A stretch of DNA of 33,965 nucleotides from a virus (Duplodnaviria > Heunggongvirae > Uroviricota > Caudoviricetes), in IMG/VR virus record IMGVR_UViG_2563366827_000005. One strand, given 5' to 3'. Both the position numbers and the translations under genes were made by a program. The notes beneath the pieces are model-generated. The model saw nothing but the letters and a program-made list of their open reading frames with translations, searched no databases and was not told the origin of the DNA. Shown piece by piece: positions 1 to 33,383 of the stretch. Numbering within the stretch: the first letter of the stretch is position 1; each line of letters starts with the position of its first letter.

Positions 1-1362
1 ATGTTTAAACCGGAACTCCTTTCCCCGGCGGGAACGCTGAAAAATATGCGTTACGCTTTCGCTTATGGCGCAGATGCTGTTTATGCGGGCCAGCCGCGTT
101 ATTCCCTGCGTGTGCGCAACAACGAATTCAACCACGAAAATCTTCAGCTCGGCATCAATGAAGCCCACGCGCTGGGGAAAAAGTTTTATGTCGTGGTCAA
201 CATTGCACCGCACAACGCCAAGCTGAAAACCTTTATCCGTGACCTGAAACCGGTGGTGGAAATGGGGCCGGATGCGCTGATTATGTCCGATCCAGGGCTG
301 ATTATGCTGGTGCGTGAGCACTTCCCTGAAATGCCGATCCACCTTTCGGTGCAGGCTAACGCCGTGAACTGGGCGACGGTGAAATTCTGGCAGCAAATGG
401 GCCTGACCCGCGTGATCCTCTCTCGCGAGCTGTCGCTGGAAGAGATTGAAGAGATCCGCAATCAGGTGCCGGATATGGAGATCGAGATCTTCGTTCACGG
501 CGCGCTGTGCATGGCCTACTCCGGTCGCTGCCTGCTCTCTGGCTATATCAACAAGCGCGACCCGAACCAGGGCACCTGCACCAACGCCTGCCGCTGGGAG
601 TACAACGTCCAGGAAGGGAAAGAAGATGATGTTGGCAACATCGTACACAAGTACGAGCCGATTCCGGTGCAAAATGTTGAGCCGACGCTGGGTATCGGCG
701 CACCAACCGACAAAGTGTTTATGATCGAAGAGGCCCAGCGTCCGGGCGAGTATATGACCGCGTTTGAAGATGAGCACGGCACTTACATCATGAACTCGAA
801 AGATCTGCGCGCCATCGCCCATGTAGAACGCCTGACCAAAATGGGCGTGCATTCGCTGAAAATCGAAGGTCGTACCAAATCTTTCTACTATTGTGCACGC
901 ACCGCACAGGTTTACCGCAAAGCTATCGATGACGCCGCTGCGGGAAAACCGTTCGATACCAGCCTGCTGGAAACTCTGGAAGGTCTGGCGCATCGTGGCT
1001 ATACCGAAGGTTTCCTGCGTCGTCATACTCACGACGATTATCAGAACTACGAATACGGTTATTCAGTTTCTGACCGCCAGCAGTTTGTTGGTGAGTTTAC
1101 CGGTGAGCGCAAGGGGGACCTCGCGGCGGTAGCGGTGAAAAATAAATTCTCCGTTGGCGACAGCCTTGAGCTGATGACGCCGCAAGGCAACATTAATTTT
1201 ACCCTTGAGCACATGGAAAACGCCAAAGGCGAAGCTATGCCGATAGCACCAGGCGATGGTTATACTGTGTGGCTCCCGGTCCCGCAGGATCTTGAGCTCA
1301 ATTACGCGCTGCTGATGCGTAATTTCTCCGGGGAAACCACGCGTAATCCCCACGGTAAGTGA
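1..1362 (+). CDS. yegQ: U32-family peptidase-like protein YegQ (tRNA hydroxylation-associated), host gene, complete
   Basis: 453-aa ORF starting MFKPELLSPAGTLKNMRYAFAYGADAVYAGQ, recognised as enterobacterial YegQ; GC-rich host-like composition; lies outside the att repeat. Confidence 0.85.
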   Translation: MFKPELLSPAGTLKNMRYAFAYGADAVYAGQPRYSLRVRNNEFNHENLQLGINEAHALGKKFYVVVNIAPHNAKLKTFIRDLKPVVEMGPDALIMSDPGLIMLVREHFPEMPIHLSVQANAVNWATVKFWQQMGLTRVILSRELSLEEIEEIRNQVPDMEIEIFVHGALCMAYSGRCLLSGYINKRDPNQGTCTNACRWEYNVQEGKEDDVGNIVHKYEPIPVQNVEPTLGIGAPTDKVFMIEEAQRPGEYMTAFEDEHGTYIMNSKDLRAIAHVERLTKMGVHSLKIEGRTKSFYYCARTAQVYRKAIDDAAAGKPFDTSLLETLEGLAHRGYTEGFLRRHTHDDYQNYEYGYSVSDRQQFVGEFTGERKGDLAAVAVKNKFSVGDSLELMTPQGNINFTLEHMENAKGEAMPIAPGDGYTVWLPVPQDLELNYALLMRNFSGETTRNPHGK

Positions 1363-8680: not shown

Positions 8681-9166
8681 TTACCAACCTCGCTCTTTAA
8701 GCCTTTGCTGCACATGTGATGCTGTCATTTTTAGAATATCAGGTAGAATAATTTCATTACCTTGAGAAGGTTGAAACGAGGCATTACGATTGGCAAAGAG
8801 GTCATGAAACCTAGTGTCTGATGTAATCATGACGGGAAGATTGTTATATCCCCGGTCGTTGAACTGATCTGCAGTCAAATCAACAATCATTCCATCCACG
8901 ACAAGCCAAGCATGTGAATTACCGTTTGAAAGACCGCTGGCGGGGGACTTATGATCAGATTCATAGTAATATCCTGCGAGTACTTCAGAGACTATCCCGA
9001 ATTGCTGATAAAGCAAATAAGCAAGCAGTTTCGATGTATCCCCGCAGCATCCCACTGGAAAGTTCGAATTTCTAAAGGATGACAGCCGTGAATGATCTTT
9101 TTTGGTCATCTTCTCAAGTGCTTCACGCACATCAACACAAAAAATTTTTAACTCATCTTGATTCAT
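8681..9166 (-). CDS. Cargo gene 2: small protein with transglutaminase-like (papain-fold) Cys-His-Asp signature; function unknown, candidate effector
   Basis: 161 aa; motifs VGCCGDTSKLLAYLL (Cys40/41 at a helix start), NSHAWLVVDG (His85) and IVDLTAD (Asp) match the TGL-superfamily pattern GxCxx[FY]A ... HAWxEV ... D[PA]T; AT-rich; ATG with AAGGT Shine-Dalgarno. Confidence 0.45.
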   Translation of the reverse strand: MNQDELKIFCVDVREALEKMTKKDHSRLSSFRNSNFPVGCCGDTSKLLAYLLYQQFGIVSEVLAGYYYESDHKSPASGLSNGNSHAWLVVDGMIVDLTADQFNDRGYNNLPVMITSDTRFHDLFANRNASFQPSQGNEIILPDILKMTASHVQQRLKERGW

Positions 9167-9252: not shown

Positions 9253-10038
9253 TCAAATAGGATTAAAACGTAGCGCAAATTCTCCATATTTTTTTTCAGC
9301 CCGATGAAACTTCACATGGCTTAGACCATTTTCACTACATATATTTTTGATTTTTGCAATATCCTGTTCCAGCGTTTTCAAACCAAAAAAAACATCAGTT
9401 ATTGCCTCTGGCTTAATCTTATAGGCTCCAATATTACTTTTATAAACTCTAATCTCCTCTTCATAATTCCAATCCATTGATTTCGTAGAGAGTGTGTCGA
9501 GTATTGATTTTTTAGGGTCTCTAAGATAATTTAATGGAATATATTGCTTCATATATACTATGTTTTGGGGGGTTATAAAGAACTCTGGATCCTTAGCAAT
9601 ATTGAGTTTTATAGCAACTCCGGTATGGTTCTCCGCATAATGAGACCATAAAAGAACATTTTCATTAGTTTTAGATAGCGATAAAATGCCATGGGCATTG
9701 ACGGCATTTGTTTTTATATTTTTAACTAGATCATTAAATGCTTGGCTGTTTTCTTTATACACATCTATTAAGTTCTGCTTTGCCTTCTTGGTTAATCCAT
9801 TCTGATATGAATATAACCAACAAGTAAAGTCTGATAAAGAGTATTCTTTTTCCTCATCCAGCATACAATCAAATGGATCATTAAAATTTTCCGCTGATGA
9901 AAAGTAAAATTCTTTTTTTTGAAGAATATCACAGGCTTTATCTATAGTTCTGAACTTGTAAACTGATTCTGGGTAGGTGCCTTCATTTATTCCTTTAAGG
10001 ATTAAATCTTTTTTATCCAACCATCTTATTCCTGACAT
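9253..10038 (-). CDS. Cargo gene 1: DUF2971-family protein; function unknown
   Basis: 261 aa from the ATG at 10038, preceded by a strong SD (AAGGAGG, about 7-nt spacer); the ORF-track start at 10059 is a TTG. Motifs VYKFR...FYFSSAENFNDPFD and LSLSKTNENVLLWSHYAENHTGVAI match what I recall as DUF2971 hallmarks. AT-rich. Confidence 0.5.
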   Translation of the reverse strand: MSGIRWLDKKDLILKGINEGTYPESVYKFRTIDKACDILQKKEFYFSSAENFNDPFDCMLDEEKEYSLSDFTCWLYSYQNGLTKKAKQNLIDVYKENSQAFNDLVKNIKTNAVNAHGILSLSKTNENVLLWSHYAENHTGVAIKLNIAKDPEFFITPQNIVYMKQYIPLNYLRDPKKSILDTLSTKSMDWNYEEEIRVYKSNIGAYKIKPEAITDVFFGLKTLEQDIAKIKNICSENGLSHVKFHRAEKKYGEFALRFNPI

Positions 10039-10368
10039 TTGATTCCTCCTTATTATCAATAACTTTCATTGGTCTTTTCGCACCACAATTTTAGACTAAA
10101 CACAATGCAAATCAACATGATTGTAGTGTCGGTGATTGTCTTACTGGTCACCAGATACTATACCGCTAAGATCAGATTAAAGGGAATGATTCTTTATTAT
10201 GTAGCAAACTTTAGAGGCCGGGAGTAATCGTGGGTAGCTCTGTTACACTGTTATAATGGGTTAGCATAGCCCATGTGATCAACGCCCGCTTTTGGCACAG
10301 AGCGGACTGTCAGATTAGGCTTTACTCTGTGCCATAGATATGTAAGCTCACACCAGAGTTCATACAAC

Positions 10369-10896
10369 TTATTGCGGCATTTCCGGCCATTCAGGATTTG
10401 CAGGATCCACACGACTGACCAGAACGCTGTAGCGTTCCCAAGCCTCCAGCCGTGTGCGCTCCTCCTCTGTTGCCATGTTCAGTCTGACCGCGCGCTCCAG
10501 CGGCAAAATCACGGATTCAGCATCTGCAAGAAGTCTGGCTTTCCGAATTTCTGCCTGCTGCTGTAATTCCTCTGCCGTATAAATGCGTTTAATCACTTTG
10601 CCGTCCTTAAACATCCAGCCCCCTGAAATATCCGCCCGTCGGTTAGCAGTAATATCCGCCACTTCAACCACACTTAATCCATCCGGTCTGATAGCTGTCA
10701 CATCCTTTTCCACATAGCGGATGATATTATCTTTGTCGTACGCTATTTTTATCGTGTCATCAGCAAAATACTTTTGTTCTTCGTACCAGTTCTTACCATC
10801 TTCTGTAAAAAACCAGACAACATCAAAGCCCTTTGTCAATTGATATTGTTCAACCGTTTTTGGATTACCCGCCGTAATATTTTTTAAATGCTGCAT
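10369..10896 (-). CDS. G: Tail fiber assembly protein G
   Basis: 175 aa, P2 gpG length and position directly downstream of H; N-terminal half is AT-rich. Confidence 0.85.
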
Positions 10897-10899
10897 AAA

Positions 10900-12897
10900 T
10901 TATACCTGTGCCACGTTATACCATGTCCCGTTAATGTATTTCTGCACCGGTCTGTAATATACGCCACCAATGTTATCGGCAGAGTTTGAGCCGGTATCCT
11001 GAATAATAATGCCGGAATATACACACCCGGACGGTGCCTGATGTGTCCATGTCATGCCATTGTTCGCAGGTTTGTATGTGGCAGCACCACCAAGCCGGAT
11101 ATCCCGGACATAGCGGGAATCAAAGTTACCGTAATCTGTGGGATTAACACGACCCGTAATATTTATGGTTTTATTACTTTGAATGCTACCGGAGACAAAG
11201 CGCATAACATGAACGTTATTAGCATAAACATCCAGATTACCGTCACCATTTTGTTTAAAGCCCGTGTCATTATCACCCAAAACAATTGAGTTACCGCCAA
11301 GAACACTGGATGTTCCGATGCCCAGTGCACCATTCAATTGACCTCCAGATAATGACAACGCCCCAACATCAGCAGCAGTCGGTTTAATGTGCGAACTGTA
11401 AATTACATATACAGTTCCATCTGTAAGACCTGTTGGTTTATTCGCTGTATAAGTTGGTGATGTATGAATCGTTACGCTGGCGTTACTGGTATAATCCCAC
11501 TGAATATTAACACCTGTGGCGTAATTACCTATTTCAACATAAACATCATAGGTATCACCGGATGTATTCACCCATGCAAAATTAGTAAATCCAACCGATG
11601 TCCGTCGCCATAACGCACCAGTAAGACCTTTTGGATTTCCATTTCCCGCACGAAGAACAAGTTCAGATATACCAGCCTGCATAGGGGAGTTAACATTATA
11701 TCCAGCACCACCAATCAGACTTATGTAAACCACGGAACTGGCCTGTGGCATGGTTACAGTTGCCAGCCTGAACCATCCTGTACCACCACTAAAAGACATG
11801 GTTGTTGAATTTGTTGCTCCAATATTGCGCAGGAATAATCTTTTATCAGGAATATCCGCGCCATTTTGATCTTTCTGAAGACGTTTTTCAGCATTGTCAT
11901 AGGCAGACTTCACCGCTTTTGGTGTTGCAGCCAGCGTTTCAGAATCGCTGTTGATGGCACTATTGAGCTGAACAAGACCTTTCCGCGCCGTGGTGGCGTC
12001 CTGTGCAGTGTATTTTCCGTTAGCAAGGTCATACGCTGTCTTAACCGCCTTTGGCGTTGCCGCAAGCGTTTCAGAATCGCTGTTGGTGGCGCTACTGAGC
12101 TGGACAAGACCTTTTCGCGCTGTGGTGGCGTCCTGTGCAGTGTATTTCCCATTAGCAAGGTCATATGCTGCCTTTACCGCTTTTGGTGTTGCGGCGAGCG
12201 TTTCAGACGTGCTGTTGGTGGCGCTACTGAGCTGGACAAGGCCTTTTCGCGCTGTGGTGGCATCCTGCGCAGTGTATTTCCCGTTAGCAAGATCATACGC
12301 GGCCTTTACCGCTTTCGGCGTTGCGGCCAGTGTTTCAGACATGCTGTTGGTCGCATTGCTTAACTGAGTAAAACCTTTTGCGGTCAGCGAGGCGTCCGGG
12401 TGACGTCGTGACTGTCCATGCTCTGCAATTTTGTCATCAACGTAATCCTGCGTCGCCATCACCGTTGTGGTGTCAATGGTCAGCGCCACTGAGGCCACAC
12501 TGCTGACGATGATGACCATGCGACAGGTCTGCGAACGCCCTGAGCCTTCGGCAAGAGCTGGCTTATAACTTTCGGCCATGTTCGCCACGGCAATTAATGT
12601 TCCCGCATCATCGTACAGGCCAAGCTCACGCATCCAGAAACCGCCCACCTCCGGCGGAATAACCAGCTCTGCAATAATATAATTACTGTTTCGTTTGTCC
12701 TGGCTGATTTTGTTCAGCGCATGTCGCCAGACTTCATGGATAAGCCCGGTCTGTCCGGCATCCGGGACAGGCAATTTACCACCTCCATCCCCGACGGCCA
12801 TCGTGGTAATGTTGACCTTCCGCCCTCCCGGCGCGGTTGCCGCTGCCAGCTTTGCTGCACCGGCAGTGGTGATAACGGTTCTGAATTTTGTGCTCAT
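10900..12897 (-). CDS. H: Tail fiber protein H
   Basis: 665 aa; N-terminus P2 gpH-like, central tandem 44-aa repeats, C-terminal receptor-binding region of lower GC. Confidence 0.85.
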   Translation of the reverse strand: MSTKFRTVITTAGAAKLAAATAPGGRKVNITTMAVGDGGGKLPVPDAGQTGLIHEVWRHALNKISQDKRNSNYIIAELVIPPEVGGFWMRELGLYDDAGTLIAVANMAESYKPALAEGSGRSQTCRMVIIVSSVASVALTIDTTTVMATQDYVDDKIAEHGQSRRHPDASLTAKGFTQLSNATNSMSETLAATPKAVKAAYDLANGKYTAQDATTARKGLVQLSSATNSTSETLAATPKAVKAAYDLANGKYTAQDATTARKGLVQLSSATNSDSETLAATPKAVKTAYDLANGKYTAQDATTARKGLVQLNSAINSDSETLAATPKAVKSAYDNAEKRLQKDQNGADIPDKRLFLRNIGATNSTTMSFSGGTGWFRLATVTMPQASSVVYISLIGGAGYNVNSPMQAGISELVLRAGNGNPKGLTGALWRRTSVGFTNFAWVNTSGDTYDVYVEIGNYATGVNIQWDYTSNASVTIHTSPTYTANKPTGLTDGTVYVIYSSHIKPTAADVGALSLSGGQLNGALGIGTSSVLGGNSIVLGDNDTGFKQNGDGNLDVYANNVHVMRFVSGSIQSNKTINITGRVNPTDYGNFDSRYVRDIRLGGAATYKPANNGMTWTHQAPSGCVYSGIIIQDTGSNSADNIGGVYYRPVQKYINGTWYNVAQV
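11893..12378. repeat. Tandem direct repeat, about 3.7 copies of a 132-bp unit, inside tail fiber gene H
   Basis: Near-identical 132-bp units visible in the DNA (compare 11941.. with 12073..); they encode KG[LF][VT]QLSxATNSxSETLAATPKAVKAAYDLANGKYTAQDATTAR four times in frame. Confidence 0.85.
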
Positions 12898-12907
12898 TCT
12901 TCCTCAC

Positions 12908-13438
12908 TTATCCGGGGTAAACCGTAATTACATCGCCGTCGTAAGCCACACCACCGGCGAACAGGTAGCCGGGAATGTCCCGGGTAATGTTCAGACCAAT
13001 AAGGTGACGGCTTGCAGGTTTGGCATCGGCAATCAGCCGTTCCATTTCCTGATACATTGCCTCTGTGATACCGCTTTCCAGTACACCAATATCAAGCCGG
13101 AAGGTGCCGGGCGGGTCACTGTTTTCCCACCACTCCGTCACGTTGATGAGATAGCCGAGCGGCTCCACCACACGCCGGATTGCGCCTATAGTGCCTTTAT
13201 GACAGTGGATGAAATAGGCATCGCGGATAACGGCGCGTTTTGTCGCTTCCGGCCACTTTTCATCCCACCTGTCGACCGAAAACGCCCACGCCAGCCACGG
13301 CAGCAGATTTGCCGGGCAGGTGTCCGGGTTCCACAGCTCACGAATACTGGCCGGTGTTTTTTCAATTTCCGCACAGGCTTTTGCGGCAGCGACTTCAAGC
13401 AGTGATGAGCCGGTCGGCAGCAGGCGCGAATCACTCAT
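12908..13438 (-). CDS. I: Baseplate assembly protein I
   Basis: 176 aa, P2 gpI length and synteny. Confidence 0.85.
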   Translation of the reverse strand: MSDSRLLPTGSSLLEVAAAKACAEIEKTPASIRELWNPDTCPANLLPWLAWAFSVDRWDEKWPEATKRAVIRDAYFIHCHKGTIGAIRRVVEPLGYLINVTEWWENSDPPGTFRLDIGVLESGITEAMYQEMERLIADAKPASRHLIGLNITRDIPGYLFAGGVAYDGDVITVYPG

Positions 13439-25073: not shown

Positions 25074-27290
25074 ATGGAACTTAGATTAAAAAATGTTACC
25101 AGTTATAAGAAAGACGCCTTCACAATACTGAATCTTGAAAAAAGAGTAAACATACTATACGGCCAAAATGGTTGTGGCAAATCTACCATTTCAAATTATT
25201 TCTACGACTCTACACACACAGATTATAACGAGTGTGAATGTACCCTTCTTGACAATTACAAACCTCTTGTTTACAACACTAAATTTATTGAAGATAATTT
25301 CTACAATGCACAGGAACAAAAAGGTGTTTTTACATTAAGTAAAGAAAATGCAGATATTGAAAAACAATTAATTGAAAAAGAAGCAATTAAACAGCAACTT
25401 ACAGAGCAATATAGACAAAAAAAAGGAGTGTTATTGAAATTAGAAGCAGAAATGGAAAAAAAAGAAAATGAATACATCGAATCGATCTGGAAAAAAACAG
25501 AACCAATCAGAAACTCTGTACTAAAAACCTTAATGAAAGGTAAAGTTGGCTATAAAAGACCTTTTTTTGAGATGATAAAATCATCCTCACCAATCACCTT
25601 TATTAATTTAAATGATATAGCAAAAGAATACTCTATACTATTAGAAAATAGAAACAATGAAACCGCATTAATAACTCCTTTACATCCATATACCCCATCA
25701 ATTGATGATGTAAATACATTAGCAACACCTATAATAGATACAAGCAATAGCTATTTATCAGAAACCATTAATAAACTTCATAATCTTGACTGGGTAAAAA
25801 AAGGTAAAGAACATTATTTAGACGGTTCTACATGTCCGTTTTGTCAGGAAAAAACTATTAGTCACGAATTTTTAAATGCCCTTAAATCAATATTTGACGA
25901 AAGTTATTCAAAGAAAGTAAAACAGCTCTCAGATATAAAGTCAGTTTATGAGAAAAATACCATATATCATTTTAACGAAATACAAAACAATATATCATCA
26001 TGTGCACTAATCAATGAGAAAGATAAAGAGATCATTATTTCCAATATTAAAATATTGCAAAACATTGCAGAAAAAAATTTAATAAACATTATTGATAAGA
26101 TCAACAATCCATCAACATGCGTTACATTAGAAATTGATAAAGAACTAGAAAATCATGTTCAGGAAAGCATAGACGCTGTTAACAAAAAAATAAGAGACAT
26201 AAATGATAAGGTTAAAAAACTCAAAGAGTATGAGAATAAAATCGGAAAACAAGTTTGGGGGGCTCTCCATGCTTTTTGCAGCGATGATTTAGAGAATTTA
26301 TCCAAACACAAAGAAAAATTCTTTGATATCAAAAAGAAAGTTCATGATGAATTAAATAATATTGAGCAACAAGGAAAAGAAAATAATCTCACAATAAAAG
26401 CATTGCGAGATAAAATATCTAACATTGATTCTACGATAGACTCAATAAACACCCATTTAAAAAATCTAGGGATCTCTGGTTTTTGTATTGAAAAACATGC
26501 AGAAAGAAAAGATATGTACATTATATCTCGACCAGGGCATACAAAAAACCAAAATGTTTATAGATCTCTTAGCGAAGGTGAAAAAACACTAATAACGTTT
26601 CTTTATTTTTTAGAGTGCTGTAAAGGTAAAACCGATAAAAATGATACCGATAGCAGGGATATTTTTATTGTTATTGACGATCCAATATCTAGTCTATCGC
26701 AAAACTATGTCTACGACATCGCATCAATTATTCATCACCACATTATAAAAAATGAATCAACAAAGAAGGTATTAATCCTTACTCACAATCTTTATTTCTT
26801 TCATGAACTTATTAAGCTATCTCCTAAAAGCAGAGAAGACAAACTATTTAAGAAAAACTATTATCTAGGTAGAGTAACGAAAAATGATTTTAGTATAATT
26901 ACTGAAATACAAAAAAACAGCATACAGAATGAATATCAATCTTTGTGGCAAATATTAAAAGATGCAAAAGATGGCAAAGCAAACAAAATCATAATACCTA
27001 ATATTATGAGAAACATACTAGAATATTATTTTGCATTTGTTCATAGAACAGATGCTCTACAAGATGAATTAACAAAGTTGGCACGCGACGATAGCAACAG
27101 TGATTTCAAAGCATTCTACAGATACATTAACAGAGGTTCTCACTCTGATGCGGTAAATATTACTGATATGGGCGACATAGACCCAGATAAATACCTAAAA
27201 CAATTGAGAACAATATTTTCAGCTACTGGTGACGAAATGCATTATTTAAAAATGATGGACGAACTAGAAGAGGAGAACGTTACCGCTTAG
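25074..27290 (+). CDS. Cargo gene: ABC/Rad50-like ATPase with long coiled-coil insert (CxxC) and C-terminal PrrC/RloC-like putative anticodon-nuclease domain; candidate single-gene anti-phage protein
   Basis: 738 aa; Walker A GQNGCGKST (aa 30-38), about 460-aa Lys/Glu-rich insert with CPFC (aa 254-257), ABC signature LSEGEK (aa 499-504), Walker B IFIVIDD (530-536), D-loop SSLS, H-loop LILTHN, C-terminal RNILE (646-650) and RYINRGSH (683-690); no Toprim motifs; strongly AT-rich; occupies the tin/old position. Confidence 0.55.
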   Translation: MELRLKNVTSYKKDAFTILNLEKRVNILYGQNGCGKSTISNYFYDSTHTDYNECECTLLDNYKPLVYNTKFIEDNFYNAQEQKGVFTLSKENADIEKQLIEKEAIKQQLTEQYRQKKGVLLKLEAEMEKKENEYIESIWKKTEPIRNSVLKTLMKGKVGYKRPFFEMIKSSSPITFINLNDIAKEYSILLENRNNETALITPLHPYTPSIDDVNTLATPIIDTSNSYLSETINKLHNLDWVKKGKEHYLDGSTCPFCQEKTISHEFLNALKSIFDESYSKKVKQLSDIKSVYEKNTIYHFNEIQNNISSCALINEKDKEIIISNIKILQNIAEKNLINIIDKINNPSTCVTLEIDKELENHVQESIDAVNKKIRDINDKVKKLKEYENKIGKQVWGALHAFCSDDLENLSKHKEKFFDIKKKVHDELNNIEQQGKENNLTIKALRDKISNIDSTIDSINTHLKNLGISGFCIEKHAERKDMYIISRPGHTKNQNVYRSLSEGEKTLITFLYFLECCKGKTDKNDTDSRDIFIVIDDPISSLSQNYVYDIASIIHHHIIKNESTKKVLILTHNLYFFHELIKLSPKSREDKLFKKNYYLGRVTKNDFSIITEIQKNSIQNEYQSLWQILKDAKDGKANKIIIPNIMRNILEYYFAFVHRTDALQDELTKLARDDSNSDFKAFYRYINRGSHSDAVNITDMGDIDPDKYLKQLRTIFSATGDEMHYLKMMDELEEENVTA

Positions 27291-32369: not shown

Positions 32370-33383
32370 ATGGCAATCAAAAAACTCGATGATGGTCGAT
32401 ATGAAGTGGACATCCGCCCTACTGGACGTAACGGAAAACGCATCCGTAGGAAGTTTGATAAGAAAAGCGAAGCTGTCGCTTTCGAAAAATACACGTTGTA
32501 CAACCACCACAATAAAGAATGGCTATCAAAACCAACAGACAAACGACGTCTGTCGGAACTGACACAGATCTGGTGGGATTTAAAGGGTAAACACGAAGAG
32601 CATGGGAAATCTAATCTTGGAAAAATTGAAATCTTCACAAAAATAACGAATGACCCATGCGCATTTCAAATCACGAAATCCCTTATCAGCCAGTACTGCG
32701 CCACCCGAAGAAGTCAGGGTATTAAACCTTCGAGTATCAATCGTGATTTAACATGTATTAGCGGCATGTTTACAGCCCTGATTGAAGCGGAGTTATTCTT
32801 TGGTGAGCACCCTATCAGAGGGACAAAGAGGCTTAAGGAGGAAAAACCAGAAACAGGCTATCTCACACAGGAAGAAATTGCCTTACTGCTTGCAGCACTT
32901 GACGGCGACAATAAAAAGATTGCGATTCTTTGCCTGAGTACAGGAGCACGTTGGGGAGAAGCAGCTCGTTTGAAAGCAGAAAATATCATCCATAACCGCG
33001 TCACATTTGTTAAAACGAAAACAAACAAACCACGCACCGTCCCGATCTCAGAGGCTGTTGCCAAAATGATCGCGGATAACAAACGAGGTTTTTTATTCCC
33101 TGATGCTGATTACCCTCGCTTCAGACGAACAATGAAAGCAATAAAACCGGATTTGCCAACGGGGCAAGCCACACATGCACTAAGGCACAGCTTTGCCACT
33201 CATTTCATGATTAATGGAGGAAGTATTATCACGCTACAACGGATACTAGGTCACACGCGGATTGAGCAAACTATGGTTTACGCTCATTTTGCGCCAGAGT
33301 ACCTTCAGGACGCCATTTCTCTTAATCCGCTAAGAGGTGGTACTGAGGCCGAGAGTGTCCACACAGTGTCCACAGTAGAGTAA
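32370..33383 (+). CDS. int: Tyrosine integrase
   Basis: 337 aa; C-terminal catalytic region ...HALRHSFATHFMINGGSIITLQRILGHTRIEQTMVYAHF (R...HxxR...Y); P2 Int length; adjacent to the att core. Confidence 0.9.
   Translation: MAIKKLDDGRYEVDIRPTGRNGKRIRRKFDKKSEAVAFEKYTLYNHHNKEWLSKPTDKRRLSELTQIWWDLKGKHEEHGKSNLGKIEIFTKITNDPCAFQITKSLISQYCATRRSQGIKPSSINRDLTCISGMFTALIEAELFFGEHPIRGTKRLKEEKPETGYLTQEEIALLLAALDGDNKKIAILCLSTGARWGEAARLKAENIIHNRVTFVKTKTNKPRTVPISEAVAKMIADNKRGFLFPDADYPRFRRTMKAIKPDLPTGQATHALRHSFATHFMINGGSIITLQRILGHTRIEQTMVYAHFAPEYLQDAISLNPLRGGTEAESVHTVSTVE

Follow-up and report, generated by a model that had tools for sequence, protein, structure and literature searches.

The tail fibre gene H of a P2-like prophage carries an in-frame tandem array of the PF03406 repeat, and the number of units in this array is polymorphic among related phages, very probably through gain and loss between neighbouring units. 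The DNA analysed, hereafter the window, is the whole 33,965-nucleotide stretch of the virus record IMGVR_UViG_2563366827_000005, which is a P2-like (Peduovirus) prophage of Escherichia coli. In the mechanism that we favour, neighbouring units would recombine unequally in register, or replication would slip across them, with the gain or loss of a unit as the outcome; a single genome may suffice for the exchange, or two P2-like prophages resident in the same host may take part in it. Given the tandem, in-frame layout, a change by a whole unit preserves the reading frame.

Gene H (10900-12897, minus strand) encodes a protein of 665 residues with one match to PF12571 and four to PF03406. The PF12571 match is full length (profile positions 1-150 of 150; 197 bits, E = 1.9e-58) and corresponds to an N-terminal tail-collar or baseplate-attachment domain at residues 1-151 (12445-12897, minus strand), from which a short linker runs to residue 173 and the array. 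The PF03406 (Phage_fiber_2) matches together score 262.2 bits, against a gathering cutoff of 22 (E = 1.1e-79), and fall in four stretches, the best of which, at residues 170-210, spans profile positions 1-41 of 42. The remainder of the protein, residues 337-665 (10903-11889, minus strand), is the distal part of the fibre, presumed to bind the receptor and conserved at its C-terminus. When the PDB was searched by sequence, its terminal 70-85 residues found Mu protein S as well as a short tail fibre, and the distal part also matches the gp37_trimer family (PF20744) weakly.

The neighbouring genes follow the order J-I-H-G, as annotated in P2. A gpI homologue (12908-13438; PF09684) lies upstream of gene H and a homologue of gene G, the tail fibre assembly chaperone (10369-10896, minus strand; PF02413, E = 1.5e-33), lies directly downstream. 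Nucleotides 1-860 of gene H align with P2 gene H at 94.4% identity, in two pieces with a gap of one unit, and the region is 99.9% identical to that of E. coli KOr024, where the product is annotated as 'tail fiber protein'. The PF12571 and PF03406 matches, the gpI and PF02413 neighbours and the identity of 94% to P2 H together confirm the identification as tail fibre gene H made in an earlier note on this DNA, prepared from the letters and their open reading frames. The profile matches likewise confirm, at the level of sequence family, that the array consists of the catalogued 'phage tail fibre repeat' PF03406 in gpH.

The limits of the array were defined in several ways. Tandem Repeats Finder reports one array in the region, at 11896-12351, with a period of 132, 3.5 copies, 87% matches, no indels and a score of 672, while a repeat search finds three copies of 226 nt, at 132-nt spacing, across 11890-12379. 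Read in the frame of gene H, the array occupies 11890-12378 and comprises three complete 132-bp units and one partial unit, all on the minus strand. Unit 1 (12247-12378; residues 174-217, KGFTQLSNATNSMSETLAATPKAVKAAYDLANGKYTAQDATTAR) is the site of the best PF03406 stretch. It is followed by unit 2 (12115-12246; residues 218-261) and by unit 3 (11983-12114; residues 262-305), which occupies the interior position gained or lost in relatives. The partial unit 4 (11890-11982; residues 306-336) covers positions 1-31 of the unit HMM, diverges past ...ATPKAVKSAYD and travels together with the distal module. The earlier note had placed the array at 11893-12378, correct to within 3 nt, and both its 44-residue consensus peptide and its count of about 3.7 units proved right.

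Its description of the units as near-identical is right for the protein, in which 2-5 residues out of 44 vary. At the DNA level it does not hold, for the full units mismatch at 15-27 of 132 nt and are only 80-89% identical. Third codon positions predominate among these mismatches. Estimated by the Nei-Gojobori method, dS between units is 0.46-1.03 and dN/dS is 0.07-0.19, and the longest exact in-register tract shared by neighbouring units is 30 bp. Such values show strong purifying selection on the units as protein, the DNA having drifted at synonymous sites, and the units of this array are old paralogues. Because the synonymous divergence between units is near saturation, recent homogenisation within the window's array can be discounted. 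DGR-like (VR/TR) mutagenesis was also considered as a source of the differences and rejected: the mismatches, of which 35 are transitions and 16 transversions, have a symmetric spectrum without A bias and are mostly synonymous.

Three repetitive open reading frames cross the array outside the frame of gene H, and they are repetitive because they overlap it. Two are antisense. One, of 165 residues (11866-12363, plus strand), lies in a frame in which the units differ at 12-19 of 44 residues; the other, of 125 residues (11990-12367, plus strand), is in the antisense frame that is codon-aligned with gene H, where the units show 4-8 differences and contain one stop. The third, of 84 residues, is on the same strand as gene H (11910-12164, minus-strand frame 1), and here 11-18 of 43 residues differ and there are three stops. 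When the three full units are compared in every frame, the H frame has the fewest inter-unit residue differences (2, 5 and 4) and is the only one free of stops; in the others there are 4-23 differences and between 1 and 12 stops. On these grounds we rejected the idea that the array holds genuine antisense or out-of-frame genes, and the opposite-strand frames are, as the earlier note had proposed, artefacts; the same-strand frame at 11910-12164 is an artefact of the array as well.

Copy number was assessed first in IMG/VR and with respect to the N-terminal domain. Among 80 loci in which this domain is at least 98% identical to that of the window, counting with the unit HMM gave 2, 3, 4 or 5 Pfam units, 4 being the commonest. 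A stricter comparison is provided by fibres that share the window's distal module, defined as 316-329 residues at 96-100% identity. Here 2.7 units are found in one locus (L093) and 3.7 in the window and two other loci (L088 and L090), while 4.7 is the number in about ten distinct loci that both scans retrieved. Three other distal modules are each found with both 4 and 5 units (L026 against L011, a 749-residue group against L025, and a 772-residue group against L002). A comparison of copy number among relatives had been proposed in the earlier note; the number proves not to be invariant, for even where the distal domain is shared, at 96% identity or more, it is 2.7, 3.7 or 4.7.

Complete genomes and more distant relatives extend this range. 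The 3.7-unit form gives an uninterrupted 1201/1201 match in 22 complete E. coli genomes and the 4.7-unit query an uninterrupted 1333/1333 match in at least 42; the 2.7-unit query gave no single-piece match among the complete E. coli genomes. In P2 itself the number is 1.7. Elsewhere in the Enterobacterales, representatives of other species carry P2-type H with 1 to 4 units, starting at residue 173-174 except in two loci, and the span across P2-type fibres is from 0.7 to 4.7 units. E. coli PCN033 (L161) was considered as a 1.7-unit case on the same distal module and set aside as unreliable: its gene H (NZ_CP006632.1, 4367684-4369392), annotated as a 'frameshifted' pseudogene, contains a 1-nt frameshift that falls exactly at a unit junction, between NS and SETLAAT, and has arisen either by imprecise deletion or through an error in sequencing. 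Separately, a second and diverged lineage, annotated 'phage tail protein' and present in about 55 complete E. coli records (e.g. H125-H160), matches in a single piece at about 78% identity. The match spans 1178 nt of array and flanks, with the matched stretch 9 nt longer in the record than in the query, and suggests that the 3.7-unit architecture is kept in this distant lineage.

Footprints of unit gain and loss can be recognised in individual arrays. Units 2 and 3 of locus L044 are identical at 132/132 positions, and units 2 and 3 of L061, like units 3 and 4 of L025, are identical at 131/132. These adjacent pairs are very recent tandem duplications, to be set against the old, diverged units in the window. 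A single event can be seen in the comparison of L088, with 3.7 units, and L022, with 4.7: the two differ by one 132-nt indel and 16 mismatches in 1998 nt and are otherwise 99.2% identical. The indel can be placed anywhere inside a 72-nt interval, as expected from an in-register crossover or from slippage.

The window's own array can be related to the longer ones by positional orthology. Its first two units and its last pair with their counterparts at the same places in the 4.7-unit relatives, whose interior units (3 and 4) are both matched by its third. For the exact unit lost in the window with respect to these relatives no consistent junction was found, the best placement varying and leaving 52-95 mismatches. 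When unit alleles were typed at 97% identity, alleles 0-1-2 of the window were also found on two other distal modules, and allele 2 was found at ordinal position 2, 3 or 4, depending on the array. The haplotypes 25-28-2-30 and 25-28-29-2-30 both occur on one distal module. At the comparative level, then, the alignments and alleles show whole-unit gain and loss together with recombination inside the array. That the array expands and contracts, as the earlier note had suggested, is borne out on an evolutionary scale by whole 132-bp steps among relatives, by the fresh duplicates and by the clean one-unit indel.

As to rate, unit number seems to change rarely and on an evolutionary timescale, not as a programmed or fast switch. 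Because no exact tract common to the units of the window exceeds 30 bp, a rare event is to be expected here and no programmed switch. A copy-number difference among very close relatives was not found in eight complete genomes from river water, human and chicken sources whose identity over 1201 nt is 99.8% or higher: all have 3.7 units. This uniformity counts against the favoured explanation too, as does the fact that units only 80-89% identical, with such short exact tracts, are a poor substrate for slippage. Some of the copy-number differences could reflect whole-array exchange between phages, not gain and loss in situ. Draft-derived IMG/VR loci could, in addition, hold collapsed or expanded arrays, although the complete genomes speak against this as a general explanation.

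The baseplate-attachment domain precedes the array and the distal part follows it. The latter varies as a module, which in all fibres examined begins at a constant phase of the last unit (unit-HMM position 31-34). We modelled residues 1-360 as a monomer with AlphaFold2, using an alignment of 40 sequences. The N-terminal domain is the only confident part of the model (pLDDT 80-94); the array is predicted with pLDDT below 50 and with one helix per unit, at ...TPKAVKAAYDLA. In the PDB sequence search the unit was carried only by Mu protein S chains. Most likely, we infer, the array forms part of the proximal shaft of the fibre trimer, to which each unit would add a fixed increment, so that copy number would determine the length of the shaft or its reach. 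A second role, as a homology joint at which distal modules are exchanged between phage types, is compatible with the first.

This second role can be taken further, and the stronger version has only a little less than an even chance of being right: the repeat would be mainly a conserved joint for swapping distal, receptor-binding modules among such unrelated phages as P2, Mu, P1-like and lambdoid ones, and copy number a by-product of out-of-register crossovers between the fibre genes of different phages that is not itself selected as a length trait. The homology of gene H to the H genes of other phages indeed stops within the array, at nt 726, 860 or 1049-1056, and more than ten distal modules are found on fibres with N-termini at least 98% identical, every one starting at the same phase of the last unit. 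The window's distal module also follows one partial unit in non-P2 fibres on contigs of 90-225 kb, Mu protein S contains one unit with the same linker, and unit alleles are shuffled among distal modules. Yet the fresh duplicates (132/132 and 131/132) and the one-unit indel in the haplotype 25-28-[29]-2-30, on an unchanged module, are more simply explained by intragenic events, and the strong protein-level conservation of every unit is left unexplained if the repeat is principally a joint. Such a joint would in any case be compatible with unit gain and loss.

The distal module of the window is further seen, in IMG/VR contigs of 29-99 kb (L121, L148, L143-L149 and L155), in fibres that have no P2 N-terminal domain. 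These fibres contain one or two repeat units and, in some that reach 1200-1650 residues, the module is duplicated. The presence of the distal module in non-P2 fibres points to modular exchange between phage types.

Returning to gain and loss between neighbouring units as the preferred reading, the question arises of whether unit number is itself under selection. It is conceivable, if rather unlikely, that it acts as an adaptive tuner of reach, fibre length being matched to the thickness of the host O-antigen or capsule and the synonymous divergence between units damping recombination and so stabilising the length.

Much harder to sustain is the proposal of a contingency locus, in which frequent slipped-strand changes of copy number would generate heterogeneity of fibre length within a single phage or lysogen population. 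The in-frame tandem layout and the variable copy number among relatives are what such a locus would have, but the units are long (132 bp) and diverged, at 80-89% identity, and their longest exact in-register run is the 30 bp noted above, in contrast to phase-variable contingency loci, whose tandem units are short or perfectly identical and offer long exact homology. Inter-unit synonymous divergence near saturation and the constant 3.7 units of the eight genomes with at least 99.8% identity in the region, from varied sources, also argue strongly against it.

Least credible of all is that the array is really invariant and the differences are artefacts of repeat assembly, for although many database gpH proteins end inside the array and are labelled 'partial', short-read contigs often break there and the frameshift of PCN033 coincides with the boundary of two units, tens of RefSeq complete genomes contain the 3.7 class in single-piece form and tens the 4.7 class, the units are diverged enough for reads to tell them apart, and curated phage genomes, P2 with its 1.7 units included, differ as well. 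The set of relatives retrieved with the gpH N-terminus (P0001-P0120) consists mostly of 'partial' fragments of 150-300 residues that end in the array; one of these, P0001, has 229 residues and represents 688 member sequences. As this set was of little help in establishing unit numbers, the counts were taken from DNA loci.

The closest known system is P2 gpH (AF063097), which resembles the protein encoded in the window in its N-terminal domain, in the J-I-H-G order of its genes, in a repeat that begins at residue 174 and in its C-terminal end (...YINGTWYNVAQV). It differs in having 1.7 units instead of 3.7, and its distal 330-420 residues constitute a different module, with about 33% identity in a forced global alignment. 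The Mu tail fibre protein S/gp49 (PDB 5yvq, 9ki1, 8ju3) has one PF03406 unit followed by a shared linker, DNAxxRLxKDxNGADIPxKxxF, and a related C-terminal tip. Its aligned segments have E-values of 7e-17 and 3e-12, unit 4 and the linker aligning to residues 99-175. Unlike the window, Mu has a single unit and a different N-terminus, and it switches the distal part by inversion of its G segment.

PF03406 is common to the tail fibres of many enterobacterial phages, and the window's units belong to this same sequence family. Its members are known as 'Pf2' in lambda Stf and in the side tail fibres of EHEC prophages, where the structure and role of the domain have been described as little known (PMC3368898). 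Other domains (PfN, collagen, coiled coil) surround the repeat in lambdoid Stf and in collagen-like proteins (PMC3368898), whereas in the window an uninterrupted array comes straight after the P2-type N-terminal domain.

A looser parallel is found outside the bacteriophages. The adenovirus fibre is trimeric and has a shaft made of a variable number of short repeats, the number differing by serotype and setting the length. Its repeats are of about 15 residues, unrelated in sequence and fold to those of gpH, and the host is eukaryotic; the comparison is by analogy only.

None of the papers searched describes copy-number variation in the gpH array. At the same time, both the repeat family and the gene are well known, public genomes hold identical alleles with annotation, and the polymorphism is to be expected and is not conceptually new. 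The current understanding of phage fibres is unchanged and the significance of the array is mainly practical. It explains the frequent truncated or 'partial' gpH entries in short-read assemblies, and copy number in draft prophages is accordingly not to be trusted. The array is also a natural, frame-preserving site both of length differences between P2-type fibres and of the joining of distal modules, which makes it useful for the construction of chimeric P2 or tailocin fibres; engineering of the P2 fibre has been reported (PMC9594776). Finally, natural fibres that combine this distal domain with 1.7, 2.7, 3.7 or 4.7 units form a series that could be used to test shaft length against adsorption.

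Some other features of the window may be recorded. A gene for a peptidase U32 family protein at 1-1362 (plus strand; E = 5e-89) is probably a host gene flanking the prophage, and an integrase is encoded at the opposite end, at 32370-33383. Two stretches have the character of cargo. Between gene G and the tail sheath gene, the slot of Z/fun in P2, lie an open reading frame of 268 residues (9253-10059, minus strand) that contains DUF2971 and matches PDC-S31, one of the candidate defence families of PADLOC (E = 3e-46), and another of 161 residues (8681-9166, minus strand) with only a weak, sub-threshold match to YunG. Between the side of the capsid-portal gene Q and the replication gene A, in the old/tin cargo slot of P2, an AAA_13 ATPase of 738 residues (25074-27290, plus strand; E = 4e-111) matches a further candidate defence family of PADLOC, PDC-S06, with E = 7e-255.
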